Assembly: GCA_964474445.1 (NCBI GenBank)
Contig: CAYYSJ010000005.1
Coordinates: forward strand, 17,835 to 81,834
DNA: 64,000 nucleotides
From: an uncultured Gammaproteobacteria bacterium
GTDB lineage: Bacteria > Patescibacteriota > Microgenomatia > Levybacterales > UBA12049
Direction: 5' to 3'
Shown piece after piece: positions 5,510-64,000 of the stretch (position 1 is its first letter; the number at the start of each line of letters is the position of its first letter). The position numbers were made by a program, and so were the translations under genes. A model generated the notes under the pieces. That model saw only the letters and a list, made by a program, of their open reading frames with translations, did not search any database and was not told the origin of the DNA.

Positions 5510-6294
5510 CGTCTTCTCCTTCCTATATCTTCTTTTCCAAATACTTTTCCCGTGGCAGCTTCTACCTCATTGCTGTATCCTTTTTTTGCCATTGGACCAA
5601 GAATGTCGTTATACATAAAAAAAAGCAGCTCTTGTTGAGCTGCTGGATTAGAGGCAAGAAGGCCGAAAAGGCTTTCCCCTGGCTCAAGCAACCAGGTGAA
5701 CGCATTAGTGAGATGTTCTCTTAATGCTGTGTCAAATTCTTGAGGAGAAAGATTTGCATAATGGGGCAAGGTCTTTAGGGTTTTTACAATAAATCCTCTG
5801 TCAAAAATGGTGAGTGGTTGGGCTTTATCAAGAACACGGGTCATAAAGCCTTCTTTATCCATGCGTCCTTCACGATGTTCAAATCTGTCATCTAAGTCTT
5901 CTACATAGACTCTGTCCTGTTGGGAAAAAAGTGGAAAAACATCACTTTCCTTGTATTCCTGTTCATATGCATCATATTGAGCGCGAAGTTGGTCATAGTC
6001 TTGGCGGCCTCTTGATAAATCTCCATGAAGGTTTGCTTCTCCACTATCATGCAGGTCTGCCATAATATCTACTTCGTTCAAGTTAATTGCTTTCGAAAGG
6101 TGAGGATACTTTTGCCTTATGGAGCCAGAAAGTCTTTTCATGCCATTGACGTGATCAAGGACTGTTTCTTGTCTTCCTTGGTTATCTGTTATACCGTTGT
6201 AGCGAATAATTTGAGGAAGAATAGTACTCCTCACACGAGCAAGTGAGGCTTTAAGAGTAGGACTAGAGGCTAATGCTTCGGCTCTCTGAACCAT
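5491..6294 (-). CDS. HD-domain phosphohydrolase (YfbR-like 5'-deoxynucleotidase fold)
   Basis: VLDHVNGM ... IMADLHDSGEANLHGDL matches the H...HD...D metal-binding signature of the HD superfamily. Confidence 0.45.
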   Translation of the reverse strand: MVQRAEALASSPTLKASLARVRSTILPQIIRYNGITDNQGRQETVLDHVNGMKRLSGSIRQKYPHLSKAINLNEVDIMADLHDSGEANLHGDLSRGRQDYDQLRAQYDAYEQEYKESDVFPLFSQQDRVYVEDLDDRFEHREGRMDKEGFMTRVLDKAQPLTIFDRGFIVKTLKTLPHYANLSPQEFDTALREHLTNAFTWLLEPGESLFGLLASNPAAQQELLFFMYNDILGPMAKKGYSNEVEAATGKVFGKEDIGRRRRWENQM

Positions 6295-6446: not shown

Positions 6447-6863
6447 GTGTCAATGGATCATACTATGTCAAATTCAGCTAAAAAAATTGGTGGATATACA
6501 AAATACCAGCGAGAGAAAAAGGGGTATTCTCTCAATGAGTTTGCCCGTCTTTGTAATTTTACCTCATCGTTCTTGCTTAAGCTTGAACGAGGAGATTACC
6601 ATAATGTGAAATTTGATGTTATTGAGAAGATATCGAATGCGCTGGATATGTCTATTGAGGATTTTCTTATTAAGTGTCAAATTACTTCTGGCAAAAAAAA
6701 ACTAGACAGTCTTGATTATTACTTTAAAGAATCATACCAATTTCCGGAAGAAGCTATTAGTGATTTAAAGCTTTTTATTCAATTGCTTCAGAAAAAATAC
6801 AAAACGCAAATTAAAGAGTTAAAAGAAGCGCACAAAAAATATTGGGAAGAGAAAACAAAGTAG
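6447..6863 (+). CDS. XRE-family (Cro/C1-type) helix-turn-helix transcriptional regulator
   Basis: N-terminal YSLNEFARLCNFTSSFLLKLERG...ISNALDMSIEDFL is a canonical XRE HTH. Divergent from the HD/HNH operon. Confidence 0.65.
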   Translation: MSMDHTMSNSAKKIGGYTKYQREKKGYSLNEFARLCNFTSSFLLKLERGDYHNVKFDVIEKISNALDMSIEDFLIKCQITSGKKKLDSLDYYFKESYQFPEEAISDLKLFIQLLQKKYKTQIKELKEAHKKYWEEKTK

Positions 6864-6897
6864 TTTTTGGAGTTTCCCTCACAGCTTTTGAGAGTTA

Positions 6898-9453
6898 CTA
6901 CACTTTTTCTTCAACACACGTTGCAGAGGCAATCTTATCAGCATCTTTGGAGAATCGCATGAGAATGACTCCTTGTGTTGCTCGTGAAAGTCGTGGAATT
7001 GAAACAGCGTCAAGTTGCACAACTTGACCTTTCTTTGAAGTCATAATCACTGTTTTGCAACTTGCTGGCATAATTTGTGAGACAACAACTTTTCCAGTCT
7101 TTTCTGTCACATTTGCTACTTTCACTCCCATGCCTCCTCTACTCTGTCCTCGGAATTCTGATGCTAAGGTTTTCTTTCCAAGACCATTTTCCATAATAGT
7201 GATAAGCACTGCTTCTTTATCATCTTTATTGATAATATCCATACTAATCACTTCGTCACTTGCTGGAATTTTAATACCTCTCACACCTTGTGTTGCACGG
7301 CCCATTGGTCTCACATCTTCCTCTGAAAAGCGGATTGCTTTTCCTTCTTTAGTGACAAGAAGAATAACATCCTCTCCAGTTGTTAAGTTACTCCAGACTA
7401 ATTCATCTTTTGTCTCAAGTTTTATTGCAACAATACCAGAGCGTCTGATATTTGTGAATTCTGAGACTGCAGATTTTTTAACAGTTCCATTTCGAGTTGT
7501 AAGGAAGACGTATTTCCCTTCAATTTTTCCTGAGTAGCTGATAAATGATTCAACTCGTTCCCCTGCTTCAATATTCAGAAGATTAACAATAGCTGTGCCT
7601 TTACTTGTTCTGCTACTTTCTGCAATTTCATATGCTTTCAATTGATAGACTTTTCCTTTATTGGTGAAGAACAAAATATTGTCATGTGTTTGGGCATAGC
7701 GAATTGCCATAATTTCATCTTCATCTTTCGTAGTCATGCCTTTCACTCCTTTGCCCCCTCTATTTTGCGTTGAGAATGAGGAGGTTGATTGTCTTTTAAT
7801 ATATCCTGTTGAGGTGATGGTGATAACCGTTGGTTCATTTGGAATAAGATCCTCTTCTGAGAATTCATCGACTTTTCCTTTGTATACTCTGGTTCGTCTT
7901 GCATCACCATATTTTTCTTTGAGTTGCTTCAATTCTTCTCCAATCACTTTCAAAATCTTTTCAGAATGTGCAAGTAAATCTTCCAAATATGCGATGGTTT
8001 CCTTGATCATTAACAACTCATCTTCAATCTTTTGTCGCTCCAGTGCTGCAAGTCTTCGAAGCTGCATGTCCAAAATAGCTGTTGATTGAATTTCTGAAAG
8101 CTTGAATTTCTCCATCAAGTTCTTCTTTGCTTCTTCTTGGTCTTTTGAGGCACGAATTGTTGCAATAACAGCATCAATATGGTCAACAGCAATCTTTAAT
8201 CCTTCCAAAATATGCAGTCGTGCTTGTGCCTGTCTCAATTCGAACTCTGAACGTCTAGTGACAACAATGAATCGGTGTCTTAGGTATTCTTCAAGAATTG
8301 CTTTGAGGGTAAGTGTCTGTGGTGTTCCATCAACAAGTGCAACAACATTTCCAGGGAATGATGTTTGCAAGGATGTATTTTTGAAAAGATTGTTTAATAC
8401 TTTCTTTGGTGCAGCATCCCTTTTTAATTCAACAACAACTCGAAGACCATGTCTATCTGATTCATCCCTCAGATCGGTAATACCTTCAATCTTTTTCTCT
8501 TTTGCTAAATCAGCAATGCGGCTGACTAAGAGTGCTTTGTTTACTTGGTATGGAAGCTCGGTAATAATAATTGCTGATTTTCCTTGTCCAATATCTTCAA
8601 TTTCTGCTTTTCCTCGAATAACAATCTTGCCTTTTCCTGTTGTGTAAAGATTTCGAATTTCTTGAATATCATAAATTGCACCAGCTGTTGGAAAATCAGG
8701 GCCTTTGACGTACTCTAACAACTCATCAACAGTAATGTCAGTTTGGACGTTGACGCGTAACTTACTTTCCTGTGTCAGAGCTTCTGCAGGGAGGACTGCT
8801 CCTTCTCCACTACTCTCTTTACCCGCAAGTGGGACTGGAGTATCTTTGGCAATTTTTGTTTTGGCAATCATTGCCTCAAGTGCATCAATTACTTCAGTTA
8901 AATTGTGTGGAGGGATTTTTGTTGCCATACCAACAGCAATTCCCTCTGCTCCCATCAGCAACAGATTTGGTAATTTTGCAGGAAGATAGAGTGGCTCTTG
9001 CAGTGTGTTATCAAAATTTCCTTTTGTTTCAACAGTTTCTTTCTCAAGGTCATACAGCATTTCAGCAGTAATTGCTGCCATTCGAGCTTCTGTGTAACGC
9101 ATTGCCGCTGGTGGATCGCCATCAAGTGAACCGAAATTTCCTTGGCCATCTACTAGAGGATATCTCATTGAGAAATTTTGAGCTAAACGAACCAAAGCAT
9201 CATAAATTGGCATGTCTCCATGTGGGTGGTATTTACCCATCACTTCTCCAACAATTTTTGCAGATTTTGAATACTTTGCAGAATGGTACAGACTCATTTC
9301 ATGCATTGCGTACAAAATTCTTCTGTGGACTGGCTTTAGACCGTCTCGTACATCAGGAAGTGCACGATCGACAATAACAGACATTGCGTAATCTAAATAC
9401 GCACGTCGCATCTCTTGTGTCAGCTCTGTTTTTTGTAATTTACCAATTTCCAT
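6898..9453 (-). CDS. gyrA: DNA gyrase subunit A
   Basis: 851 aa with a full-length GyrA signature ([28 protein letters not shown]) and C-terminal beta-pinwheel repeats. Confidence 0.95.
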
Positions 9454-44046: not shown

Positions 44047-46060
44047 GGGTCAATTCAGTAACTTTTCCCAAAAGTTGTGGGTATTTTTGTAACTCTGGGA
44101 ATACTTTGTTTGCTTCCTGTCTTGCAGTACTAATGAGTTTCATATCACCAATTTGTGCAATTTTTAACCATGCTTTTCCATGTTGGAGTGTGCCGTATAG
44201 TTCCCCTGCTCCTCTCAGTTTTAAATCCAACTCTGCCAGCTCTGCTCCGTTATGGATTTTTTCCAAGGATTTGAGTCTATGAATGGTACCGGGGGATCTT
44301 GACTCGGTAAACAAGAGACAATAGGATTGCTTTTCCCCTCTTCCCACTCTTCCTCGCAGTTGGTGTAACCCGGCAAGACCAAAGCGTTCTGCTGCCTCAA
44401 TAACAATTATAGTTGCATTAGGAATATCGATACCAACCTCAACGACAGGTGTTGCAACCAAAATGTCTATCTTCTTATCCCGAAAATCCTGAAGAATTGC
44501 ATCTTTTTCTTTTGGCCGCTGCTTTCCATGCAGAAGTCCTAATCGAAGTTTTGGAAATACATGCTTTTGTAGTCTTTCAAATTCAACAGCAGCAGCTTTT
44601 ACAGTTGTCATACTTTCTGACTCTTCGATAAATGGACATACAATAAAGGCTTGGTCTCCTTCATTCACTTTTCCTTCAATCCACTTGTATGCTCCCTCTC
44701 GTTTTATTTCTGGGATAAGCCAGGTTTTAATGATTTGTCTTCCTTTTGGCAGTTCATCGATAACAGAAAGGTCCAAATCACTGTAGAGAGTGAGAGCAAC
44801 AGTACGAGGAATTGGTGTTGCTGTCATGGTTAAAACATGAGGATTTTCTCCTTTTTCTCTCATAACTCCCCGCTGTTGTACGCCAAATCGATGTTGCTCA
44901 TCAATAACGATAAGACCAAGTTTCTCAAATTGAACTGTTTCTGCAAGAACTGCATGGGTACCAACGAGGATATCAGTATTATGTGGTTTTTTACTCTCCT
45001 TCTCTTTTACCGTTTTACTGTTTCCTGTTTGCAGCCCAACAGTTATCCCTAGTGGCGTAAGGAGTTTGTTCAGTGTTTGGTAATGTTGCTCAGCCAAAAT
45101 CTGTGTTGGTGCCATGAGGACTGATTGGAACCCATTTAAAAAAGCAAGATACATGGCAATGCCAGCAACAACTGTTTTTCCTGATCCAACGTCTCCCTGA
45201 ACAAGTCGGTTCATTGGCTCTGTTTTTTCCAAGTCTTTGAAAATTTCATGAATCACTCGTCGTTGTGCATTCGTTGGTTCAAAAGGAAGCTGCTCCCAGA
45301 ATTTTTGAATGTCTTTTTCAAATTTCTCAATGGTAAATGCGTGTCCTTTTAATTTCTGTCTCCATTCTGACTTTCTCTGCAGTGCTGCGAGTTGCAGAAG
45401 AAAGACTTCATCAAATCCAAGTCGTTCTCGTGCTTTTTCTGCTTTTTCCAAAGACTCTGGAAAATGAATTTCATGTAATGCAGAGGAATAATCCATTAAT
45501 CCTAAGGTGTGGAGTGTGGGCTTTGGTAAAAAGTCAGTCAACTCATCTGTTTTCTGAAGCAGTTTATATACCTGTCGTCGAAGCCATTTTGAAGAAACTC
45601 CTGCAGTCTCCGGATAGACAGGAACAAGTCTTCCTGTGTGAATGGTATGACCGTCTTCTGGAATGATTTCAAAATCAGGTGCAGTAAGAGAGAGTAAAAA
45701 TCCATCGCTTTCAATTCGTCCGGAAAGAGCAATCTTATCACCAAATTTGAGTGTTTTGGTAATAAAGGGTTGATTAAACCAGACAATGTTGATACTTCCT
45801 GTTGGATCAGTAACTTGCGCTTTTTGGATTTGTTTATGACTTTTTGTATAGTGGTTGGAAATATCAGTAATAGTTCCTTGAATCGTAACGACCTCTCCTG
45901 CTTTGACGTTTGTAATAGGGGTAATAAGGGAATAGTCATCATAGCGATGAGGGAGATGGTATAAAAAATCTTTCAGAGTGAGAATTTCTAGATTCTCCAA
46001 CCTCTTTGCATACATGTGGTAGAGTTTGCCTGCATCGGCAACAGGAGTAGAAAGATTCAT
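44024..46060 (-). CDS. recG: ATP-dependent DNA helicase RecG
   Basis: Walker A GDVGSGKT, DEQH box, TATPIPRT motif, N-terminal wedge domain. 678 aa. Confidence 0.9.
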   Translation of the reverse strand: MNLSTPVADAGKLYHMYAKRLENLEILTLKDFLYHLPHRYDDYSLITPITNVKAGEVVTIQGTITDISNHYTKSHKQIQKAQVTDPTGSINIVWFNQPFITKTLKFGDKIALSGRIESDGFLLSLTAPDFEIIPEDGHTIHTGRLVPVYPETAGVSSKWLRRQVYKLLQKTDELTDFLPKPTLHTLGLMDYSSALHEIHFPESLEKAEKARERLGFDEVFLLQLAALQRKSEWRQKLKGHAFTIEKFEKDIQKFWEQLPFEPTNAQRRVIHEIFKDLEKTEPMNRLVQGDVGSGKTVVAGIAMYLAFLNGFQSVLMAPTQILAEQHYQTLNKLLTPLGITVGLQTGNSKTVKEKESKKPHNTDILVGTHAVLAETVQFEKLGLIVIDEQHRFGVQQRGVMREKGENPHVLTMTATPIPRTVALTLYSDLDLSVIDELPKGRQIIKTWLIPEIKREGAYKWIEGKVNEGDQAFIVCPFIEESESMTTVKAAAVEFERLQKHVFPKLRLGLLHGKQRPKEKDAILQDFRDKKIDILVATPVVEVGIDIPNATIIVIEAAERFGLAGLHQLRGRVGRGEKQSYCLLFTESRSPGTIHRLKSLEKIHNGAELAELDLKLRGAGELYGTLQHGKAWLKIAQIGDMKLISTARQEANKVFPELQKYPQLLGKVTELTLNHVSPD

Positions 46061-46262
46061 AGTACTAATTGTTTCACTGTTATATTGCTACATTGATGGA
46101 CTTATTGCAACTATGAATCTATCGTCCAAGTGCGAGATATGGAAGGAGTGCCCCAAGGACAAGCGCAATACTTGAGATTGCAATAAGTACTTTTAAAACC
46201 CACTGATGTTTTCTAAAAAATTCCATATGATAGGTTATGATATCCTCTCTATTTCAAACCCA

Positions 46263-47459
46263 TTATTCTTGTACTGTTACTTTTACAAACTTTCTCTTTC
46301 CTACTTTTACAACAACAGAATCTTCTATTGCAACCTCTTTTGCAGGATTTTCTTGCCTTTCCTCATCAATCATAACTCCTCCCTGCTCTACTAATCTCTT
46401 TGCTTCTGTTTTGCTGTTTGCAAGACCAAGTCTCACCAGTAAGTCTGCAAGTTGGAAAAGGTTCTCTGATGCGCTAACTGTAACAACAGGGATTTCATCT
46501 GGTATTTCCTTGTTCTGAACTGTCCTTTCAAAATATGCTGCTGCCTCTTGTGCTGCATCTTCACCATGGAATTCTTTAACTATCTCAAGAGCGAGTTCTT
46601 TCTTGATACGCATTGGATGCTCGCCTGATGCAAGACGTGTTTCAACGTCATAGACCTTTTCCATAGGGACACGGGTTCCCAGTTTGAAGTAATTGACAAT
46701 GAGGTCATCTTCAATAGCCATAACTTTTGCAAACATATCTCGTGGTTCTTCCTCAAGCCAAATTGCGTTTCCTCCAGTTTTGGACATTTTTTTGCCATCT
46801 GTCCCAATCAAGAATTCCATAGTCAGGACAAAAGAATCTTTGTTTCGCAAATCTTTTTGCAGTGTTCTTCCTGCTTGCATATTAAATGTTTGATCAGTAC
46901 CACCTATTTGAATATCAGTATCCAAAAAGTAACTGTCATATCCTTGCATAACAGGATACAATACTTCATGAAGACCTACCCGTTTATTTTCCTGTAATCG
47001 TTTTCTGATAAGTTCCCGTCCAACAAAATCTCCAACTGCGAAATGTTGCGTAAGTTTGACAATCTCTGTAAATGGTAGTTTGGATAACCATTCACTATTA
47101 TGGACAACTCGTACTTTAGAGAAATCAACAATTTTTTCTGCCTGCTTTTTATAGGTTTGAAAATTCTCATGAATTTGTTCAGAGGTAAGGACCGGTCTTT
47201 CAGAATCTTTATCTGATGTATCTCCGATAAGTGCGGTGAAGTCTCCAATAAGAAAGGTAACAGTGTGTCCTAATTCTGCAAATGCTTGTAGTTTTCGTAA
47301 AGGAACAGCATGACCTAAATGAATTTTTGTTGCGGTAGGATCAATGCCTAAATAGATATGTAATTTTTCTCCGGAATCTAAACGTTTTCTGAGTTCTTCT
47401 TTTCCAGGGATAATATTTGCTACACCTCGTGTGAGTACTTCTTCAATCTTGTCATTCAT
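46263..47459 (-). CDS. tyrS: Tyrosyl-tRNA synthetase
   Basis: HIGH-class motif (IHLGHAVPL), KMSKT motif (KMSKTGGNAIWL), C-terminal S4 domain. Confidence 0.9.
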   Translation of the reverse strand: MNDKIEEVLTRGVANIIPGKEELRKRLDSGEKLHIYLGIDPTATKIHLGHAVPLRKLQAFAELGHTVTFLIGDFTALIGDTSDKDSERPVLTSEQIHENFQTYKKQAEKIVDFSKVRVVHNSEWLSKLPFTEIVKLTQHFAVGDFVGRELIRKRLQENKRVGLHEVLYPVMQGYDSYFLDTDIQIGGTDQTFNMQAGRTLQKDLRNKDSFVLTMEFLIGTDGKKMSKTGGNAIWLEEEPRDMFAKVMAIEDDLIVNYFKLGTRVPMEKVYDVETRLASGEHPMRIKKELALEIVKEFHGEDAAQEAAAYFERTVQNKEIPDEIPVVTVSASENLFQLADLLVRLGLANSKTEAKRLVEQGGVMIDEERQENPAKEVAIEDSVVVKVGKRKFVKVTVQE

Positions 47460-47492
47460 AGCTTAAAGTATAACACGCTCATGTAATTTCTG

Positions 47493-47753
47493 CTATTGCC
47501 TTGCAACCACAAGAAATCTTGTCAGATTATCTTTTTTATCCTGCAAATCTTTTGCAATAATATCAAAATGATAGTGATCAGCAAGAGTCTTAGGGCCTAA
47601 AATTGCCGTGGTTGATGGAAGATTTCCTTTTGCCAATTCTTCTGCTGCTTTTGCTGTATCAACAAGATCTCCTTCTCCACTCATAAGAGTAAGATGTGAG
47701 TATGTTGCTCGCAATGTTTGCTCACATTGTTTGAATACTTGAGGGTGAGCCAT
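47493..47753 (-). CDS. pheA: C-terminal portion of the prephenate dehydratase (PDT) domain. In frame with the upstream ORF across a single TGA at 47778-47780.
   Basis: MAHPQVFKQCEQTL... aligns to the PDT core (SHPQALAQC in E. coli PheA). The reading frame is the same as ORF 47778..48824. Confidence 0.6.
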   Translation of the reverse strand: MAHPQVFKQCEQTLRATYSHLTLMSGEGDLVDTAKAAEELAKGNLPSTTAILGPKTLADHYHFDIIAKDLQDKKDNLTRFLVVARQ

Positions 47754-47777
47754 AATTGTTGTAATATCCTTTTCTTC

Positions 47778-48824
47778 TCAATCGTTTCGTTTCATGAGAA
47801 AGTGACGTATGAGAAGAGTAAAGTCTTCTACAATAACAAACTTGTACCTTGCCATTGCTTGTAGAGACTCCTCAACGAGTCCTCCTGTTGCATTAGAAAT
47901 GGCAAAAAGCCCATAATCAATCGTTCCTTCATACAGATGTTGTAACACTTTCTCTGATGTATAGAGATACTGGGTCGTGTGTTTTTCTACTCCATGACTT
48001 AAAAGGTAGAGTTGTAGTGCTTCTTCATTAAAACTCCCTTTTCCTCCTTGGATACCAAATGTCAAAAAATCAGGATCCACTTGGTTTGGGAGTAACTCAT
48101 TGTACAGTGTATCGAACGCTTGCCCTATCTGGATTCTCATTGCTTTTGTAGATGGATTGTATGTCTGTAAGTCATGGAAAAGTTCTCGTGTATCGTTACA
48201 TGTTTGATCTTTCACTTCTAACAATTTTTTTGTCCCAAGTGAATCAATTGGTGTTGGTTGAAAATGTACTTTTTCAAGAAGTCTTCCAACAAAATGCGTT
48301 ACTCCTTGAGACCGTGCTGCATAATCATCATGTTCTTCTGCTGACATCTCTACAACTCGAAGTTGTTTCCTTTCAAAATATTCTTTCCAGAAACGATATG
48401 TCTCATCTGTTGTTTTGAATTGATCAAGAATAATAGGGAGTCCTGAAAATCCATCTTTGCTACTATCGGGACCAAACATCGGATGGGTTAGTAATACTTG
48501 ATTGGTATGAATATATGTTTCACATATTTTTTTCGGGTGTACTTTTACTGACAATACATCAATAAGAATATTGTACGGTTTTATATGCAGTTGGTGTTCT
48601 TGTATAACGGATGCAAATGCATTAATTGGGACAGCATAAAAAATAGCATCACTTTCATATACTTCATCAAGTGTTGTTGCAATAGTTGTATGTTTTGTAA
48701 AATGTTCTCTCTCCGTAGGTGGGATAGTGCTTCTGTTAAAAATGGTAATAGCAAAGTCGTCTTTTAGTAAACGATAAAGGGTTTTTCCAAATCTTCCAAA
48801 TCCAACAATGCTGACTGTCTTCAT
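47778..48824 (-). CDS. tyrA: Prephenate dehydrogenase (TyrA) fused to the N-terminal part of prephenate dehydratase. Terminated by an in-frame TGA.
   Basis: N-terminal Rossmann IVGFGRFGKTL (TyrA). From about residue 250 the PDT motifs follow: LTFGIQGGKGSFNEEA...GLFAISNATGGLVEES. Confidence 0.7.
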   Translation of the reverse strand: MKTVSIVGFGRFGKTLYRLLKDDFAITIFNRSTIPPTEREHFTKHTTIATTLDEVYESDAIFYAVPINAFASVIQEHQLHIKPYNILIDVLSVKVHPKKICETYIHTNQVLLTHPMFGPDSSKDGFSGLPIILDQFKTTDETYRFWKEYFERKQLRVVEMSAEEHDDYAARSQGVTHFVGRLLEKVHFQPTPIDSLGTKKLLEVKDQTCNDTRELFHDLQTYNPSTKAMRIQIGQAFDTLYNELLPNQVDPDFLTFGIQGGKGSFNEEALQLYLLSHGVEKHTTQYLYTSEKVLQHLYEGTIDYGLFAISNATGGLVEESLQAMARYKFVIVEDFTLLIRHFLMKRND

Positions 48825-49966
48825 AAGTAGGTATCAAGATCAGTAGTATCGGCGCAAATACTTGCACGAATATATTTTTTGCCATTGTTTCCAAATGCTG
48901 ACCCTGGTGCAAAAAAGACTTGTTTTTCTCGAAGGATTTTTAACACATAGCTTTCGGAATCAGGTTCATTATCAGGGATTTTTGCCCAAATATATAATCC
49001 TCCTTTTGGAAGAGTGAAGGTCAAACCTAATGCTGTCAGTTTTTCAGCGATTTTGTCTCTTCTTTTTTGATAACTTTCTATCATTGCTTGATGCCACGAG
49101 TTGTCTGGGTGAGAAAGTGCAAAAGCACCTAGTTCTTGCAGAGGAAGTGACATACCTGAATCAAGTTGCGATTTTATTTTCGTTAATGCGTCAATCACGT
49201 GTTTATTTCCAACAATCCACCCCATTCGATATCCAGCAAATGAATAACTTTTTGAAAAAGATCCTATTTCAACTGCAACATCTTTTGCTCCTGCTATTTC
49301 TAAAATACTGGGAGCAACAACTCCATTAAAGGTAATTTCTGAATATGCGTTGTCATAAATGAGAACAATATTGTGTTTTTTTGCAAATTGGACAAGTGGA
49401 ATAAGTTGTTCTTTTGTTGCAACTTGTCCTGTTGGATTAGAAGGAAAATTAACCCATAAACACTTTGTTTTAGGAGTAATTTTTGCAGCAAGTTCCTTCA
49501 TGTCAATTGGATTCTCTCCATCTATATGAAGTGTATAGGGAACAGGAACACCACCAAAAAGTAGGATCGGTCCACTAAAACCAGGGTATCCTGGGTCTGG
49601 TACAAGAGCTTGATCTCCCTCGTCAAGAAGAGCCAAGGAAATATGACTTGTCCCGTCTTTTCCCCCTAAGAGTGGCAGTAATTCATCTTCTGAAAGTTCT
49701 ACTCCAAACCGTTTTTTGTACCACTCTATGAGTGCAGATGCAAATGATGGTATTGCCTTGTACCCAGGATACAGATGCGCCTTTGGTGCATCAAGAAGTT
49801 CTTGATATTTCTCTACATAGAGTTTGCTTGGTGGTACATCCGGAGATCCGATTCCTAAATTGATCACCTTTCTTCCTGATTCTTTTTCTACTTCTTTGAT
49901 CACTTTGTTCATTCGAGAGAAAATGTATTCGGGGAAATTATTGAGCCGTTTTGCAAGCTGTATCAT
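48821..49966 (-). CDS. Class I/II pyridoxal-phosphate aminotransferase (probable aromatic/aspartate aminotransferase)
   Basis: PLP-Lys region SFSKSYSFAGYRMGW. N-terminal NLGIGSPD. 4-nt overlaps with both neighbours. Confidence 0.8.
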   Translation of the reverse strand: MIQLAKRLNNFPEYIFSRMNKVIKEVEKESGRKVINLGIGSPDVPPSKLYVEKYQELLDAPKAHLYPGYKAIPSFASALIEWYKKRFGVELSEDELLPLLGGKDGTSHISLALLDEGDQALVPDPGYPGFSGPILLFGGVPVPYTLHIDGENPIDMKELAAKITPKTKCLWVNFPSNPTGQVATKEQLIPLVQFAKKHNIVLIYDNAYSEITFNGVVAPSILEIAGAKDVAVEIGSFSKSYSFAGYRMGWIVGNKHVIDALTKIKSQLDSGMSLPLQELGAFALSHPDNSWHQAMIESYQKRRDKIAEKLTALGLTFTLPKGGLYIWAKIPDNEPDSESYVLKILREKQVFFAPGSAFGNNGKKYIRASICADTTDLDTYL

Positions 49967-50232
49967 ACTTGTTCCTCTTTCTTCAATGATTCTTTATGAA
50001 TAGTGTTCCAAATAGTTATGATGAACTCTTCTGTAAGTCCGAGTTGTTTTCCTATTTCTGTTCGCGTTTTCACGACTTCGTCCCACCGTGCTTTATCTAA
50101 TGGAGGTATGTTTTGTATTTTTTTCAGTTTTCCAATGTTACTCACAATTTCCATTCTTTTTGCCAATATGTGCAGTAATGTGTTATCTACCTCATCAAGT
50201 TCTTTTCGCAGTGCTGCAAGGTGTTTATTCAT
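49963..50232 (-). CDS. Chorismate mutase (AroQ class)
   Basis: LRKELDEVDNTLLHILAKRMEIVSNIGKLK fits the AroQ helix-1 pattern. 89 aa. ATGA overlaps. Confidence 0.75.
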   Translation of the reverse strand: MNKHLAALRKELDEVDNTLLHILAKRMEIVSNIGKLKKIQNIPPLDKARWDEVVKTRTEIGKQLGLTEEFIITIWNTIHKESLKKEEQV

Positions 50233-50987
50233 TTCCAGTCCTCCATGATGGTGTCAAATTCGTCCCATGTCACTTGTTGTTTCGAATCAGTCAACGCATG
50301 TTTTGGATCGTGATGTACTTCAATCATGAGTCCATCTAAATTGTTTTGTGCTGCTTCTTTTGCTAAGTAAAAAACATTGGGGACATTTCCTCCACTGTGT
50401 GATGGGTCAAAGATAACCGGGATTCCGGTCTTTTCTTTTACTCTCTCAGTCATAGCATAATCTGGCTTATTTCGAAGTCCCAGTGGATTATCACCATGAG
50501 GAGAAAATCCCCGATGGCAGTTTATAAGATGATCTTTGTCAACTCCTCCTGAGAGGACATGCTCCACAATACCTTCCCAATGTTCCTCATTTACCCATGG
50601 TTGATTCTTTACTAAAAGAAATGCTCGTTTATCTTTTGCAACAATTTGTGCAATTTCTTTTTGAATAAAATGATTTTGATTTCTTGCACCTATCCATAAC
50701 AGTACTTTTGTATTGGAAACAGCAGAAAGAACAGCGTCCATAACAAGTTGTGCTTGTTTTGGTGTGAGCACTTCTGTTCCCGGATTAACTCCCTGTTTTG
50801 CTGCTGCAATCATCCATGGAATACCTTCCTCCCCTACCCCTTCAAAGCCTGGTTTAGTTCGAGGTTTCCATAAATTAACGCGCAAAAAATCAACATGTCT
50901 TTTCTTTGCTTCTTTAATTGCTATATCGATTTGTTCTTTTGATTCAGCAGCACAGGGCCCGGGAATCATGATTGGTTTTTTCTTCAT
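50229..50987 (-). CDS. 3-deoxy-7-phosphoheptulonate (DAHP) synthase, type I-beta
   Basis: IPGPCAAES, GARN, FDPSHSGG motifs of the KDO8P/DAHP-I-beta family. Confidence 0.85.
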   Translation of the reverse strand: MKKKPIMIPGPCAAESKEQIDIAIKEAKKRHVDFLRVNLWKPRTKPGFEGVGEEGIPWMIAAAKQGVNPGTEVLTPKQAQLVMDAVLSAVSNTKVLLWIGARNQNHFIQKEIAQIVAKDKRAFLLVKNQPWVNEEHWEGIVEHVLSGGVDKDHLINCHRGFSPHGDNPLGLRNKPDYAMTERVKEKTGIPVIFDPSHSGGNVPNVFYLAKEAAQNNLDGLMIEVHHDPKHALTDSKQQVTWDEFDTIMEDWK

Positions 50988-51898
50988 AGTTCAAGTCCTT
51001 GAAAATAATTGGTTATTGTTTTTCGTTTAACAGATTTTTTTTGAATCACAAGATTTCTGCACAATGCAATTTCTTGTTTAGTTGGTATTGCTGCAACATT
51101 TCCTACTTTAGTACATTGCAGTGCTGCTACCAAATTGGCGAATTGTATCGTTTCATGAATGTCCCAATCTTGCAATATCCCAAATGCAAAAGCTCCTCGA
51201 AAAATATCCCCTGCTCCTGTTGTATCAATTGTTTTAATTGACAGTGACGGGATAATTTCCATTTTTTCGCCGTCAAATAAGAGAGATCCTAATTCTCCTG
51301 CTGTTGCAATGAGAGGTTTGGATGAAAGTTTTTGTACTGTTTTCAGACAACTTAATAAATGTTTTTTCTTGTTCACTTTGAGTAATGCCTCGATAGGAAC
51401 AATTGGGTATGTTGCGTGTCGTAACATATCAATGGTAAAGTCAGAGATCTCTGTTGATGTATCAACAAGAAGTGTGGTTGTGGGGTTTTTCTTAGCAATG
51501 ATTTCATAAAACGCTTCTTTTTCATGTCTGTCTAGTAGAATCAAGTCAAATTGGCGAAGGAACGCAGGAGTCAAGTGAGTAATAGGACGATGTTTGATTG
51601 CTTCACGTTTTTTTTCTCGCTGACCAGTCTGTGCATCGACAATAATCGTATGGATTTTGGTTCTTTCCTGTTTATGGGTAATCACTTGTACCTGTTCTTC
51701 TTGTAACGTTTGTTGAATGATATTTCCATACGAATCATTTCCAAGGCTTGTTATTAATGTGCATTCCATACCAAGTCGAGAGAGTAAAATGAGGCCTACT
51801 GGAACAGGTCCACCGACATGTTGTTCTGTAGTTTCCAAACGCCTGTCTTTTATAATGACATTGTCTATAACTGATTCACCAATTCCTAATATTTTCAT
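50984..51898 (-). CDS. PfkB-family carbohydrate/sugar-acid kinase (start refined to ATG 51898); first gene of the aro operon
   Basis: DTTGAGDIFRGAFAFG anion-hole motif. N-terminal GIGESVID. 4-nt overlap with DAHP synthase. Confidence 0.75.
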   Translation of the reverse strand: MKILGIGESVIDNVIIKDRRLETTEQHVGGPVPVGLILLSRLGMECTLITSLGNDSYGNIIQQTLQEEQVQVITHKQERTKIHTIIVDAQTGQREKKREAIKHRPITHLTPAFLRQFDLILLDRHEKEAFYEIIAKKNPTTTLLVDTSTEISDFTIDMLRHATYPIVPIEALLKVNKKKHLLSCLKTVQKLSSKPLIATAGELGSLLFDGEKMEIIPSLSIKTIDTTGAGDIFRGAFAFGILQDWDIHETIQFANLVAALQCTKVGNVAAIPTKQEIALCRNLVIQKKSVKRKTITNYFQGLEL

Positions 51899-51908
51899 AT
51901 ATTTACAC

Positions 51909-51931
51909 AAAAAAACCTCCCGGTTGGGAGG
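51909..51931 (-). terminator. Intrinsic terminator (attenuator 3:4 helix): CCUCCC-AACC-GGGAGG followed by U7
   Basis: Plus-strand aaaaaaacctcccggttgggagg. On the minus strand a 6-7 bp GC stem with a 4-nt loop and seven U. Lies 11 nt upstream of the kinase ATG. Confidence 0.65.
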
Positions 51932-51957
51932 TGTTCTTTTTGCTTCGTCGTTATGAC

Positions 51958-52032
51958 TTATGCGAGCAACAAACCTCCCTCGTCAGAGGTAAAAAAGTAA
52001 AAATAAAAGTTTGCTGCTTTTCTAATATGCAT
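51958..52032 (-). CDS. Leader peptide MHIRKAANFYFYFFTSDEGGLLLA (24 codons, six consecutive Phe/Tyr codons)
   Basis: Hand-translated on the minus strand: atg cat att aga aaa gca gca aac ttt tat ttt tac ttt ttt acc tct gac gag gga ggt ttg ttg ctc gca taa. Sits between a promoter-like element and the terminator. Confidence 0.55.
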   Translation of the reverse strand: MHIRKAANFYFYFFTSDEGGLLLA

Positions 52033-52044
52033 AGGTTAGTTGAA

Positions 52045-52073
52045 ATTATTCCATACCTTGTTTTCTTTGTCAA
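52045..52073 (-). promoter_or_regulatory. Sigma70-like promoter: TTGACA, 17-nt spacer, AATAAT
   Basis: Minus-strand ttgaca (52073-52068), a 17-nt spacer, then aataat (52050-52045). This is a sequence pattern only. Confidence 0.4.
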
Positions 52074-52241
52074 GTTGGCACAATATTCTCCGGAGAAATC
52101 TGAAAATGAGAAACTTAGTTTTTCGGATTAACCATGATTAATCGCCTACTCTTAAATCCATCATGTATTGTTACACCAAAGCCTTGAGGCACTTCTGCTA
52201 ATCTAAAAAAAGATGGAGAGTTCGTCTCGTATATGTTGCTT

Positions 52242-54341
52242 TTATATAGTGGGTAACAAAAAACAAAAGGAGGTCTGTTTTTTCTGTTGATCACTTCTTC
52301 CCCAAATTTTTCCATTGTGTGCTTTGATAATTTCTGCTGCAATGTAGAGTCCTAATCCCATTCCAGGAACACGGAGTTTTTTAGGATTTGTACGAACAAA
52401 AGGTTTAAAGATGCTATCTAAATCTTTTTTATTGATACCAATTCCATAATCTTTGACACACACTTTTATATTATTTGTCTCTCTTGAAAGCATAATATCA
52501 ATTGAGGTTGCATCGGGAGAATATTTCACTGCGTTATTAACGAGATTGATAAGTACTCGGCGGATCTTCTCTTTATCTCCTAATACTTTTCCTTCAACTG
52601 TCCCTTTTATATGCACAGTATGAGTAAGTATTGTCGGTTTCATTTCACTAATAGTTTCTTTGACTAGCTTCCCAAGAGCAATCTGTCTTTTACGAATTTT
52701 TTCTTCGCTATATTTTATTTTTGTGATATCAAGCATGTCCTTTACTAAAGATGATAATCTGTTTGTTTGTTCGATAGACTGTGTTACGATGCGAGGCATA
52801 TTCTCATATTGATTATTTTTCAAAGAACGTTGTAATGCTGATAGGTACAAGGTCAGACTTGTTAATGGCGTTTTTAATTCATGACTGGCAATGCCAATAA
52901 ACTCCTCTTTTATCAACTCTTTTTGTTTTAGATCAGAAATATCTTGCACAATGTCTACAATATTTTGTAGTGTTTTTTTATACACAATCGGGAAGGACTT
53001 AATTCTTAACCATTGTGTTGTTTCATCATCCCAAGTTAAACACAAATCCTTTTCGTATACATGAGGATCCTGGAACATTTTTTCGTAGTGTAATTGCGTT
53101 GTGTCCATCTGCCTTCCCTCTTCGTCAGTGACAAAAAGTAGGTTTCTTTTCCCTGACAAGGAAGTTTCTTGTTTTCCGTCAGAAAACAGATATACTCTTT
53201 TTGCTTCATTGTTCATAAAAAGAATCTTTCCCCTTGCGTCCCGAATAATAATCCCCTCCCCGACCTTAAGAAGAATTCTTTCTAAATCTTGTTTGGATTG
53301 ATACAATTTTTCTCTGGAAATAACTCTATCCAGTGCTTGTGCACATTGTCCAGCAAGCATAAGAATCACTTGTTTATCAAAATCTGTAAAGTTTTGGGGT
53401 GTCCGAAAGTAAAAATTAATACTCCCAAATACTTTTTCTTTTACTTTTAACGGGAGAAACGAGAGAGATGATAAACCTGTAGCATGGATAATTTCGTTCA
53501 GTGTCTTAAATTTTTTATCTATCGAATGTACATTGGTAATAAATAGTGGTTGTTTTTTTTGAATAACTACGTTGGTAAGATAGGTATCTTTAGCACGGTA
53601 CGTTGTTGGCCACGTATCAACAAGTTTTTTAGGATAACCAATCTGGGTAATAACGTCATAGGTATTTGTTTTTTCGTCAAAGATAACAACCTCTCCAACT
53701 TGAGCGTCTATCATATTAAACCCTTCTTTCACCATAATTTCGCCAACCTTTTCTTTCGTAGATGCATAAGACAAAAGTGAGGTAATCTTTTGCAATCCCA
53801 CAATCTTTTTCACAATATTTTCATATTTGGGTATTTCCGAAAACTCGACGGATTGTTTTTCTATGACATTGAGCATTTGATCAGCAAAAGCCAATGCTAT
53901 CTCTTTTGTAAACAAAGAAAACCGTTTCACAGGGAGAAAGAAAAAACATATGTATTCAGCAGTATTTTTACGAATTCTCATAACAATACATGTTTCGGGG
54001 GTGTTTTGAAGATAGGTGTGTAACTGAGGTATGGCTTTCCAGAATGAAAGATCTTCTACAAAAAGAACCTCTTGAGAGGAGAAAAGTTGTTCAAAAAGCA
54101 CATACTCAGCGTTAAGCGCGTGAGTAACGTATTCCATTGTTTGCTTATTCTTCCCAATGTGCGTTAGAAGTTTAAGCGGTGAACCAATCTCTTTCTTCCA
54201 TATAGCCGCTGCTTGTGCTCCGAGGAGAGAACTTCCTAATGTTACGACGATTTCTGAAAGTTGATTCAAAGAAGTAGCATGAGCTAATGCAATAGAAACC
54301 TGTGAAAATTTTGCCAATTGTTCTTGAGCACGTCCGTTCAT
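52242..54341 (-). CDS. Cytoplasmic sensor histidine kinase (GAF - GAF - PAS - HisKA - HATPase_c)
   Basis: H-box IGIASHELKTPLTS, N-box NLVNNAVKYS, G-boxes DYGIGI and GMGLGLYIA. No TM. No adjacent response regulator. Confidence 0.8.
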   Translation of the reverse strand: MNGRAQEQLAKFSQVSIALAHATSLNQLSEIVVTLGSSLLGAQAAAIWKKEIGSPLKLLTHIGKNKQTMEYVTHALNAEYVLFEQLFSSQEVLFVEDLSFWKAIPQLHTYLQNTPETCIVMRIRKNTAEYICFFFLPVKRFSLFTKEIALAFADQMLNVIEKQSVEFSEIPKYENIVKKIVGLQKITSLLSYASTKEKVGEIMVKEGFNMIDAQVGEVVIFDEKTNTYDVITQIGYPKKLVDTWPTTYRAKDTYLTNVVIQKKQPLFITNVHSIDKKFKTLNEIIHATGLSSLSFLPLKVKEKVFGSINFYFRTPQNFTDFDKQVILMLAGQCAQALDRVISREKLYQSKQDLERILLKVGEGIIIRDARGKILFMNNEAKRVYLFSDGKQETSLSGKRNLLFVTDEEGRQMDTTQLHYEKMFQDPHVYEKDLCLTWDDETTQWLRIKSFPIVYKKTLQNIVDIVQDISDLKQKELIKEEFIGIASHELKTPLTSLTLYLSALQRSLKNNQYENMPRIVTQSIEQTNRLSSLVKDMLDITKIKYSEEKIRKRQIALGKLVKETISEMKPTILTHTVHIKGTVEGKVLGDKEKIRRVLINLVNNAVKYSPDATSIDIMLSRETNNIKVCVKDYGIGINKKDLDSIFKPFVRTNPKKLRVPGMGLGLYIAAEIIKAHNGKIWGRSDQQKKQTSFCFLLPTI

Positions 54342-62009: not shown

Positions 62010-62558
62010 TTAGCCAATTAATTTAAGGAGGAGAGGAAATTCTTTGTAAGGTTGATTAAAATAATCAGAACCCATATGTGCTTCTCCTTTTGGAATAATT
62101 AATGTGCCTTTTTCTAATTGATCAAGCATATATCTTCCTTCAACGTCATTGCATCCCCAAGGATCATTGTCAGAATTAATAAAAATAATATCATCTACAT
62201 TATCTGAAATTTTTTTCCAGTCATATGTGTTTTGGAGAATTTTTTCTGGATCTTTTTCCTCACCTTTTGGTCTTGCATAACCGGCAACAAGAATTGCCTG
62301 TTTAATCTTTACGTCAATATTCTCTAAAACACTTAGTTGTAAGGGGCCTCCAGCAGAATGTCCTAAGAGAATTGTTTCCTCGTTGTAATTTTCTTTTAGT
62401 GCAACAGGAAGCCAATTAGCCAAATCAGGATAATCTGGATTTGGAAGAAGAGGAATAGAAACAGAATATCCTTTTTCTTCTAATTCTTTCTTTAACCAAG
62501 GAAACCAAAAAGATTGATCTGTTTCACCTGTTCCGTGGAGAATGATGATGTTTTTCAT
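62010..62558 (-). CDS. Alpha/beta serine hydrolase (YdeN/RBBP9-like)
   Basis: GHSAGG nucleophile elbow. 182 aa. Confidence 0.6.
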   Translation of the reverse strand: MKNIIILHGTGETDQSFWFPWLKKELEEKGYSVSIPLLPNPDYPDLANWLPVALKENYNEETILLGHSAGGPLQLSVLENIDVKIKQAILVAGYARPKGEEKDPEKILQNTYDWKKISDNVDDIIFINSDNDPWGCNDVEGRYMLDQLEKGTLIIPKGEAHMGSDYFNQPYKEFPLLLKLIG

Positions 62559-64000
62559 TTTACTTTTCCTTTGAAGGTTTTCTCAATTGAGGAAATAATC
62601 TTTTTACGAATATCAGCTACGTCTTCTGTTGTGAGATTTTTTTCTTTGTGTTGATAGACAATATGGAAAGTTCTAGTGTTCTCATAGATATCTAGTAATG
62701 AAACTTCTGTGATCAAATCACTTTGTTTTTGGATATTTACTATCACATCTCCTGTTCTCACTTTACTATCCAACACAAAAGCAAGATCTTCTGTAATTGC
62801 TGGATACTTAGCAAGTGGTGTATATGTTTTATGCAGTGTTGCATGTTTGAGGAGTGTCTCAAAGTCAAATTCTGCAGTAACAACATGTTTATCCATTACT
62901 TCAATAACTCCCACATGATCTTTTCCAATATAGACACTTGCTCCAATACCACCAAGTTCTGAGTCAGTAAAGGTGAGATCGTGTATGCCAAATTCTTTTG
63001 CTAATTGCTCAATGGTTCCTTTTGCATGAGAGAATGTTCCTCGTTTGCCTTTGAGAATATATGCAAGTGTTCTTCTCTCATCTGGCAATTTCTTCTTTTT
63101 ATTCTTTGTATACACATTGGCAATTTCAAAGATTTCAACAGTATCCCTTGCCTTATTTTCTGCAACAACTTGCAAAAGACTTGGGGTAAGCGTTGTTCGC
63201 ATATGCACATGATCATTATCCAACGGATTTGCAAGCGTGACTGCTTCATCAATTGGTCCTTCAAGCAGTGCCTCACTGACCATGGAGTAGGTGTACACTT
63301 CTGTTAATCCCCATAATTTGAGCATGTCTTTTGCTTTTTGTTCCCAGAAGAATTGGTTACTTCCCTGATGATATGGTGTTGTAAAAGTAAATGGAGGAAG
63401 CGTACTTGGAATATTATGATACCCATACATTCTTGCAACTTCTTCAATAACATCCTCTGGAATCGTAACATCCAGTTCCCGCCAACTTGGCACTTTAACC
63501 ATTAAACTGCTATTTTTTTCTTCCACTTCAAATCCGAGACCTTTTAAAATGGTGATGGATTTTGAGAGAGGAATAGCAACACCAATCGTGCGATTAATTT
63601 CTTCGTGAGTGACGGTTACTGTTGCTGGTTTTACTTTTCCTGGGTAAATATCAATAACCTCACTGACAACTTTTGCATGTGCCACTTCTTTATATAACTG
63701 TACTCCCCTTTGAAGTGCTTGCAATGCAAGCTCTGGATCAACACCTTTTTCATTCAATGCTGCTGCTTCGGTACGAATAGCAAGCCCCATCGATGTTTTT
63801 CGAATTCTCCATGGATCGTTGTTATCAAAGAAGAAAAGAATTCGTTTAGTAGCATCTGTGACAACACTATTTGCTGTTCCCATGATCCCCAGCAAATCAA
63901 TAATTTCCCCTTCTCCGTTATCAGCAACAATATCTCCACCTGAAAGCGTATGTTCCTTTTTATCAAGCGTTACAATTTTTTCTCCTTTTTTGGATGGACG
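62555..64000 (-). CDS. pheT: Phenylalanyl-tRNA synthetase beta subunit. 3' portion only; the reading frame stays open to the window edge.
   Basis: B3/B4 region (DLLGIMGTANSVV), B5 and the C-terminal FDX-ACB/anticodon-binding-like region. Hand translation of 63896-64000 shows no stop codon, so the N-terminus is outside the window. Confidence 0.8.
   Translation of the reverse strand, partial: RPSKKGEKIVTLDKKEHTLSGGDIVADNGEGEIIDLLGIMGTANSVVTDATKRILFFFDNNDPWRIRKTSMGLAIRTEAAALNEKGVDPELALQALQRGVQLYKEVAHAKVVSEVIDIYPGKVKPATVTVTHEEINRTIGVAIPLSKSITILKGLGFEVEEKNSSLMVKVPSWRELDVTIPEDVIEEVARMYGYHNIPSTLPPFTFTTPYHQGSNQFFWEQKAKDMLKLWGLTEVYTYSMVSEALLEGPIDEAVTLANPLDNDHVHMRTTLTPSLLQVVAENKARDTVEIFEIANVYTKNKKKKLPDERRTLAYILKGKRGTFSHAKGTIEQLAKEFGIHDLTFTDSELGGIGASVYIGKDHVGVIEVMDKHVVTAEFDFETLLKHATLHKTYTPLAKYPAITEDLAFVLDSKVRTGDVIVNIQKQSDLITEVSLLDIYENTRTFHIVYQHKEKNLTTEDVADIRKKIISSIEKTFKGKVK

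Follow-up and report, generated by a model that had tools for sequence, protein, structure and literature searches.

A 64,000-nucleotide stretch of contig CAYYSJ010000005.1 (the window) carries on its minus strand, at 51909-52073, an element that most probably acts as a ribosome-mediated (leader-peptide) transcription attenuator; we put the probability of this reading at roughly 0.85. It precedes an operon for a PfkB-family kinase, a DAHP synthase (DAHPS), a chorismate mutase (CM), an aminotransferase and a TyrA/PheA protein, and it would sense the supply of aromatic aminoacyl-tRNAs. A first-pass annotation, made from the sequence alone, had proposed such an attenuator here, and conservation, covariation and constrained folds now speak for it. 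The mechanism would be the classical one and no new kind of system; as judged from these comparisons, the element belongs to a well-supported new family whose predicted traits are leaderless-type initiation and mixed sensing of Phe, Tyr and Trp (F/Y/W). All leader and operon coordinates below refer to the minus strand of the window.

Re-reading the sequence placed the promoter, the mini-ORF (a short open reading frame, ORF), the four pairing segments and the U7 tract exactly where the first-pass annotation had them; the gap in front of the operon is likewise real, its length being 343 nt to the kinase ATG at 51898 rather than the 330 nt given there. The promoter consists of a -35 box TTGACA (52068-52073) and, after a 17-nt spacer, a -10 box AATAAT (52045-52050) directly preceded by TG; TTGACA-N17-AATAAT scores 11/12 and is the top promoter-like site in 46000-52600. 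The -10 box ends 12 nt from the ATG of the leader ORF, which predicts a 5′ untranslated region (UTR) of about 5 nt. The leader ORF (51958-52032; ATG at 52032-52030, TAA at 51960-51958) has 24 codons plus the stop, lacks a Shine-Dalgarno (SD) sequence and encodes MHIRKAANFYFYFFTSDEGGLLLA. Its codons 9-14 (51991-52008), TTT TAT TTT TAC TTT TTT, are the predicted regulatory codons and specify F Y F Y F F, so that the claim of six consecutive Phe/Tyr codons stands, as does that of a stop codon (51958-51960) lying between regions 2 and 3.

Folds and a search for complements define the pairing segments. Region 1 (51986-52018) spans the regulatory codons and includes AGCAGCAAACUUU (52018-52006) together with CCUC (51989-51986), the latter being part of the ACCUC (51990-51986) originally named; it pairs with region 2 in minimum free energy (MFE) folds of the untranslated RNA. 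Region 2 (51965-51979) starts 11 nt past the aromatic codons, a distance whose median among relatives is 12 nt, and contains GGGAGGU (51979-51973), the partner of region 3, and UUGCU (51969-51965), the inner strand of the antiterminator, which can pair with AGCAA (51940-51944), the 3′ strand of the inner helix; the inner hairpins of relatives differ at this place. Region 3, ACCUCCC (51926-51932), serves both as the 5′ arm of the terminator and as the 3′ strand of the antiterminator. Region 4 (51909-51921), recognized from the fold and the alignment, is GGGAGGU, the 3′ arm of the terminator (GGGAGG at 51921-51916), with the U7 tract (T7 in the DNA, 51915-51909). The terminator thus has a 7-bp stem, a 4-nt loop and U7, the tract ending 10 nt from the kinase ATG. 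By itself this hairpin has a free energy of -12.6 kcal/mol, and the antiterminator formed by GGGAGGU:ACCUCCC and UUGCU:AGCAA evaluates to -14.1 kcal/mol, its inner pairing being an alternative to that of the MFE structure. Folding of the 141-nt leader gives -39.5 kcal/mol (z = -3.96), which none of 200 shuffles equals, and among 1000 shuffles of the sequence upstream not one had a complement to the terminator arm as long as the 7 nt of the real leader.

These segments suggest the following course of events. Transcription would start a few nucleotides upstream of the leader AUG, as judged from the position of the -10 box and the absent SD sequence, and a ribosome would load on this leaderless-like mRNA and trail RNA polymerase. 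A shortage of charged tRNA-Phe or tRNA-Tyr would stall the ribosome on the six F/Y codons, where it would cover region 1 and leave GGGAGGU of region 2 free. Region 2 would then capture ACCUCCC once region 3 had been transcribed, with the UUGCU/AGCAA inner helix stabilizing the structure, and the terminator would be pre-empted in favor of read-through into the operon. When charged tRNAs are available, the ribosome would reach the UAA 13 nt past region 2 and cover both region 2 and the inner strand, and the 3:4 hairpin with U7 would terminate transcription. Termination would also be the outcome without translation, through the pairing of region 1 with region 2.

Folding with a ribosome mask (the footprint covers 28 nt, -15 to +12 relative to the A-site codon, and the transcripts end just before region 4) reproduced the predicted alternatives: the antiterminator with a stalled ribosome, and the terminator with a ribosome at the stop codon or with none. 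With the footprint on any of the aromatic codons of the window leader, GGGAGGU of region 2 pairs with ACCUCCC at an MFE of -17.4 to -18.1 kcal/mol. With the footprint on UAA the 2:3 pairing is gone and region 3 is unpaired, and with no ribosome the 1:2 helix forms (-22.3 kcal/mol), region 3 again being unpaired. Applied to 32 leaders, the stalled-ribosome mask yields the 2:3 helix in 30 and the stop-codon mask removes it in 27. Where a relative's leader is short, its stop codon falls within region 2 or directly ahead of it; in the others it comes 13-27 nt past the start of region 2, and in most relatives a ribosome at the stop would reach over region 2 or the inner strand.

The host of the window is a member of the Patescibacteria (candidate phyla radiation, CPR), as follows from its GyrB, which shares 86-92% identity with proteins named 'Patescibacteria group bacterium' and 78% with one from Levybacteria, and from its PfkB homologues. 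The kinase homologues come from Patescibacteria with the source names Saccharimonadales, Pacebacteria, Roizmanbacteria and Patescibacteria group, and a genome scan with homologues of the kinase added Levyibacteriota, Dojkabacteria and Gracilibacteria. With a GC content of 35-40%, this agrees with the reduced low-GC genome suspected at first. The window also encodes gyrA, a type IV pilus ATPase, PBP1 and argininosuccinate synthase.

The genome scan with the kinase-homologue alignment provided 34 CPR loci (L003-L036) and 44 distant, mostly acidobacterial loci. Upstream sequence is readable in 33 of the CPR loci, and 32 of them, all but L021, have an aromatic-rich mini-ORF followed by a terminator directly before the operon; the alternative pairing is conserved with these parts, so that the element passes the comparison with relatives on which the proposal could have failed. 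Examples of the mini-ORFs are MNIRKTTNFWFYFYTLSEGGLLRA (L003), MNLQQAYYWFYFTSQPGRLSDGLK (L012), MNRVTSNTFYFYFWRTAIGV (L027) and MSKLTVKNWGFFFYFTRSLGG (L031). With the window included, 36 copies of the element were found in all, each made up of an F/Y/W-rich mini-ORF, a terminator and, about 12 nt past the aromatic codons, a segment complementary to the 5′ arm of that terminator. A strict pattern, defined as a mini-ORF with at least five F/Y/W in six codons and a terminator no more than 90 nt from its stop, matched once in the window, 33 times in 0.94 Mb of CPR sequence (with the window and its own genome, L001, among those counted) and not at all in 1.05 Mb of non-CPR loci. Each CPR match is followed by this operon or by a gene of the aromatic pathway (in L004 a DAHP synthase gene ahead of that for PfkB, and for the first copy in L013 aroB). 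A covariance model with the terminator as its sole structure, tried on the fetched loci, recovered 36 leaders at E ≤ 1e-4, one of them in the window and some absent from its training (L013:1211-1340 and the tandem pairs of L004 and L029).

The coding content of the aromatic run is conserved in a manner that points to translation. The best 6-codon windows of the 36 leaders hold 202 F/Y/W codons out of 216 (105 F, 72 Y and 25 W), with synonymous codons in both forms (TAT 40 and TAC 32; TTT 93 and TTC 12). Codon replacements lead from one aromatic residue to another, although most single-base changes of TTT would give a non-aromatic residue, which argues for selection on codon identity and therefore implies that the mini-ORF is translated. 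Past the run, the nucleotide string GGGAGG is retained and is translated as E-G-G, G-R or R-E-E depending on the leader; since the string is kept as its reading frame varies, the constraint downstream of the run appears to act on the RNA. The leader peptides of relatives range from 14 to 35 residues, and their amino acids beyond the aromatic run are not conserved. A Trp codon occurs in the run of most relatives (TGG is counted 25 times over the 36 leaders) and is absent from that of the window; Trp codons suit control of the common aromatic pathway.

Covariation was assessed for each helix. Plain MAFFT alignment misregistered the divergent leaders, and alignment-free searches with shuffle and swap controls were used together with covariance-model alignments. 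For the terminator helix 3:4, the 36-leader alignment fitted to that helix has 91% of its cells paired, with compensatory changes at 6 of 7 pairs and a score that none of 500 shuffles reached. For the 2:3 helix, the terminator 5′ arm was taken from each leader's own fold and its longest Watson-Crick complement was sought upstream in the same leader. Of 32 leaders, 24 have a complement of 6 nt or more, and in 30 it is placed 8-20 nt (median 12) downstream of the aromatic run; in 23 of them no more than 20 of 1000 shuffles equalled it. Variants of the terminator stem (CCGCC, CCCGC, CUCUCUUC and CCUCCU) are met by a matching change in the upstream segment, as seen in the region 2/arm pairs GGGAGGU/ACCUCCC, GGCGGU/ACCGCC (L025), GGCGGUU/AACCGCC (L031), GGCGGCU/AGCCGCC (L034), GCGGUU/AACCGC (L036), GCGGG/CCCGC (L020 and L029) and AGGAGG/CCUCCU (L035). 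When arms were swapped, 32 of the 36 leaders complemented their own arm over a greater length than they did arms of other classes on average, with 7 against 3 nt for the majority arm in L031 and 7 against 4 in L034. On an alignment not fitted to 2:3, this helix is 75.5% paired compared with 70.7% in shuffles (1/500), and a slid partner gives 40-59%; on a covariance-model alignment fitted to 2:3, 83.8% of cells are paired, 3 of 7 pairs show compensatory changes and 0/500 shuffles reach the score, slid controls giving 39-64%.

Several results weigh against the attenuator. The full-length leader keeps the terminator in its MFE structure even under the stalled-ribosome mask (-26.1 kcal/mol), and for this reason the switch must be kinetic, that is co-transcriptional, as in classical attenuators. 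The truncated leader already favors 2:3 when untranslated in about 20 of 32 relatives. The pairing of regions 1 and 2 described in the first-pass annotation is present in the MFE fold of the window; across relatives it is poorly conserved, with 72.6% paired compared with 69.6% in shuffles and the value reached by 27 of 500. RNAalifold gave no consensus pairs on truncated alignments covering regions 1-3 or regions 2-3, a null result that we attribute to the lineage-specific hairpins in the spacer between regions 2 and 3 and to competition of 1:2 with 2:3. The leader ORF has no SD sequence, and with a predicted 5′ UTR of about 5 nt its transcript would not be leaderless in the strict sense. Finally, the regulated operon may be decaying in this genome, given the TGA that interrupts its TyrA-PheA gene and the lack of aroB-aroC genes within the 64-kb window.

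An ordinary terminator or insulator between the upstream histidine-kinase gene and the operon, with the mini-ORF and the GGGAGGU repeat arising by chance in AT-rich DNA, has in its favor that intrinsic terminators are frequent between genes and that Phe/Tyr codons arise easily in U-rich DNA. Yet a strong promoter stands between the histidine-kinase gene and the hairpin, and the gene upstream differs in relatives (rplT) whereas the mini-ORF, region 2 and the terminator accompany the operon in 32 loci. The strict pattern is absent from the control loci and region 2 covaries with the terminator arm, and we regard chance as extremely improbable. What relatives have kept (an open frame whose ATG is near the promoter, whose aromatic codons vary synonymously and whose stop falls at region 2 or shortly after it) also makes it very unlikely that the mini-ORF is untranslated and that the switch is a T-box, a metabolite riboswitch or a protein-dependent device of the TRAP or PyrR type. 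Such a switch would share the terminator/antiterminator pair, which is common to all these mechanisms; it would fit a leader ORF without an SD sequence, and tyrS and aromatic genes are typically T-box regulated in Firmicutes (general knowledge; PMC1262725). However, searches of the window and of nine related loci gave no Rfam family at its gathering score, and the sole notable match, Phe_leader (RF01859; 40.3 bits, E = 3.4e-5, gathering score 55), is itself a leader-peptide family. That match is driven by the terminator core and the U-rich codons, the long helices of Phe_leader being unmatched with many non-canonical pairs. Covariance models found no T-box in the window or the nine loci; the leader, at about 125 nt, is too short for a T-box of about 200-300 nt and has no conserved aptamer-like core, its stretch between regions 2 and 3 being variable, and the 33 nt in front of tyrS leave no room for one either, as the first-pass annotation had argued.

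GGGAGGU and ACCUCCC look like SD and anti-SD sequences, respectively, and an alternative TTG start at 51910 lies 5 nt after GGAGGU, so that translational control, in which ACCUCCC would mimic the anti-SD and sequester GGGAGG as the ribosome binding site of the kinase, also had to be weighed, together with a functional aromatic micropeptide acting at the membrane or through nascent-chain arrest; trans-acting leader peptides are known, e.g. peTrpL (PMC7298713). Against both, alignment of homologues places the kinase start at ATG 51898 (M1 is nearly invariant), 17 nt after GGAGG, SD use is rare in the window (8 of 53 genes), the 7-bp GC-rich hairpin with U7 is a canonical intrinsic terminator, and the peptide is unconserved outside the aromatic run, with the wide range of lengths given above. 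We therefore think it very unlikely that either accounts for the element, and we retain the leader-peptide attenuator.

How the leader ORF would be initiated can be judged from its surroundings. An SD-like 4-mer precedes only 8 of the 53 long ORFs in the window, and the ATG of many genes follows a TAnnnT box at a distance of about 6-8 nt (e.g. those starting at 3535, 10002, 31550, 41000, 47459 and 56979); this suggests that the genome has many leaderless mRNAs and that initiation without an SD sequence is normal in it. Most of the other 31 aligned leaders have an equivalent of the promoter (TTGACA-N16-18-TAnnnT) upstream, about 24 of them scoring at least 10/12, and in 27 of 32 leaders the -10 box is 6-13 nt from the leader ATG. 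Because this box is so near the ATG and no SD sequence precedes it, the leader transcript is probably leaderless or has a very short 5′ UTR. The leader genes of corynebacteria are reportedly leaderless transcripts (Neshat and colleagues, 2014), which would fit the distance from promoter to ATG found here.

Among known systems, the element resembles E. coli pheL-pheA, with which it shares a short ORF with a Phe run, alternative pairing of segments 1 to 4 and a terminator just before an aromatic-branch gene (PMC11802643, PMC3082878). It differs in having mixed Phe/Tyr codons (Phe/Tyr/Trp in most relatives), no SD sequence, an operon that begins with the PfkB kinase and DAHP synthase, and a host from the Patescibacteria rather than the Gammaproteobacteria; it would work like pheL-pheA, yet stands outside the Rfam Phe_leader family. 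In function the nearest analogue is the aroR leader (Phe-Tyr-Phe) of Corynebacterium glutamicum, which lies upstream of the aroF operon (PMC11802643). Compared with the published description of that actinobacterial system, the run of the window is longer, at six codons, and the Patescibacteria family, usually with a Trp codon, can extend its control to all of the shikimate pathway and to an aminoacyl-tRNA synthetase gene. In E. coli pheM-pheST a leader peptide with Phe codons controls an aromatic aminoacyl-tRNA synthetase operon (PMC11802643); similarly, the Patescibacteria leader heads operons that end in pheS-pheT (L013) or tyrS (the window, L003 and L035), but here the synthetase gene is distal in a biosynthetic operon and seemingly has its own -10 box. 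In mycobacteria, polycysteine short ORFs at the 5′ ends of leaderless transcripts are reported to sense the supply of the amino acid and to attenuate the downstream operon (bioRxiv 10.1101/834739); those ORFs use Cys codons and belong to another phylum.

Leader-peptide attenuation, called classically proteobacterial in the first-pass annotation, is in fact documented in Proteobacteria, Actinobacteria and some Firmicutes (PMC2965389). Within the full-text literature, in which subscription journals are thinly covered, we found nothing tying Patescibacteria or the candidate phyla radiation to leader peptides, attenuation, T-boxes or riboswitches, and no earlier description of such a cis-regulatory element in this lineage. 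Some leader-peptide attenuators are said to have been predicted by Vitreschak and colleagues in 2004 in Bacteroidetes/Chlorobi and Thermotogales.

Two resemblances of the RNA itself may be mentioned here. The terminator core CCUCCCAACCGGGAGG (within 51906-52022) is near-identical to the enterobacterial Phe_leader consensus, and regions 2 and 4 (GGGAGGU) are SD-like and regions 1 and 3 (ACCUC, ACCUCCC) anti-SD-like in a genome that seldom uses SD sequences; the resemblance is taken as convergent.

Gene regulation in the CPR is almost unknown and most of its members are uncultured, and a covarying cis-element in 36 copies is something rarely inferable there. If the reading is right, it would extend leader-peptide attenuation to another major lineage, would argue that ribosomes closely follow RNA polymerase there, and would suggest that leaderless initiation is able to drive an attenuator in Patescibacteria, as reported for actinobacteria. 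It would also mark the kinase, DAHPS, shikimate and Phe/Tyr genes as one aromatic-responsive regulon, which offers a functional lead for the uncharacterized kinase, and would point out those CPR lineages in which aromatic amino acids are still synthesized. The covariance model could serve to annotate such leaders in metagenomes.

The operon behind the leader begins with the gene for the PfkB-family sugar kinase (50984-51898; Pfam PF00294, with all NCBIfam matches below their cut-offs). The kinase protein also occurs in the runs ERR3317248 and SRR31070047. Domain and family matches identify the next three as a type I-beta-like DAHP synthase (50229-50987), an AroQ-type chorismate mutase (49963-50232) and a class I/II aminotransferase (48821-49966), and these are followed by a fusion of prephenate dehydrogenase and prephenate dehydratase (TyrA-PheA, 47493-48824). 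Adjacent genes overlap by 4 nt (50984-50987, 50229-50232, 49963-49966 and 48821-48824), and 33 nt past the fusion gene comes tyrS for tyrosyl-tRNA synthetase (46263-47459, by family matches), the overlaps and the gap being as first claimed. The gene content read by the first-pass annotation holds as well, except that TyrA-PheA is not intact: an in-frame TGA (47780-47778) breaks it in the window (HFLMKRND*EEKDITTIMAHPQVF), and the gene is continuous in 12 of 12 relatives, which have a sense codon at this place, mostly for Val, Ile or Ala. The TGA could be a recent nonsense mutation (making a pseudogene), an assembly error or a site of read-through. A conserved in-frame stop or recoding site was considered and rejected, as the split tblastn matches came from a split query and all 12 relatives are continuous.

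The kinase gene heads the operon in most of the related loci (near position 7001 in L003-L036), and in L004 the DAHP synthase gene comes first. A role of the PfkB kinase as a substitute for shikimate kinase was ruled out, as a normal aroK occurs in the same operon or cluster of L012 and L013; the kinase may, speculatively, supply a precursor. The genes presumably controlled vary from locus to locus. In the window, L003 and L035 the leader stands before kinase-DAHPS-CM-aminotransferase-TyrA/PheA-tyrS, and in L012 it stands before the kinase, a DAHPS-like gene, aroB, aroA, aroK, aroE, aroD, aroC and CM. L013 has one leader before aroB-aroA/K-aroE-aroD-aroC and another before the kinase, a DAHPS-like gene, TyrA/PheA, pheS and pheT.

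A TG-extended -10 box, TGTTATACT (47475-47467), ends 7 nt before the tyrS ATG, and similar boxes occur 6-13 nt before the ATG of operon-terminal aminoacyl-tRNA synthetase genes in relatives (tyrS of L003, near 11470, and of L035, near 11685, and pheS of L013, near 10150). Because of this box so near the ATG and its equivalents in the three loci, tyrS probably has its own promoter, with read-through from the operon being additional. The earlier proposal that the attenuator governs tyrS thus holds to the extent that read-through may reach the gene, and probably fails as an account of its sole control. The window also contains pheT, for the beta subunit of phenylalanyl-tRNA synthetase, at 62555-63883 on the minus strand, pheS and its upstream region being past the window end.

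Tandem aromatic leaders stand in series before the operon in L004 (5109-5224 and 5253-5367) and in L029 (2418-2532 and 2556-2653), and the two leaders of L013 are separate, at 1211-1340 (aroB-aroC) and 6854-6989 (kinase through pheST). Leaders rich in Thr and Ile codons were seen before thrS at L005:3669-3761, L006:577-~680, L011:3647-~3745 and L014:388-~480, with the mini-ORFs MIYSDIITTTIIL, MIRQITTIIATTNP, MSQGITITTTTIL and MTNAIIITTTIL; each has a promoter directly before the ATG and then a complementary segment and a terminator, and other loci are without such a leader. They resemble E. coli thrL, except that they are placed before a synthetase gene. This sister family hints at a general use of the mechanism. 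It is an even call whether attenuation on leaderless or near-leaderless transcripts is the general mode of amino-acid sensing in these Patescibacteria, in the role that T-boxes have in Firmicutes, with the aromatic family serving the shikimate and Phe/Tyr pathways and the Thr/Ile family thrS in at least four genomes. Were this so, transcription and translation would be tightly coupled in CPR bacteria, and some supposedly auxotrophic episymbionts would keep and actively regulate de novo synthesis of aromatic amino acids.

Weaker matches to the leader model, at 25-31 bits, occur at L036:11145-11306, L024:11317-11468, L033:2638-2743 and L011:981-1093; they have a promoter, a mini-ORF that is Ile/Leu-rich or mixed and a terminator, lie upstream of other genes, and may be attenuators of other specificity. 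Within the window the covariance model finds a single attenuator and no second one. Strong hairpins followed by T5 (at least four G-C pairs) number three on both strands of the 64-kb window, and the two apart from the leader terminator are unrelated to it. One of these two, a 7-bp hairpin with T8 at 5613-5643 on the minus strand, falls within a long ORF (...PAAQQELLFFMYNDILG...) and is probably a chance intragenic terminator-like site rather than an attenuator.

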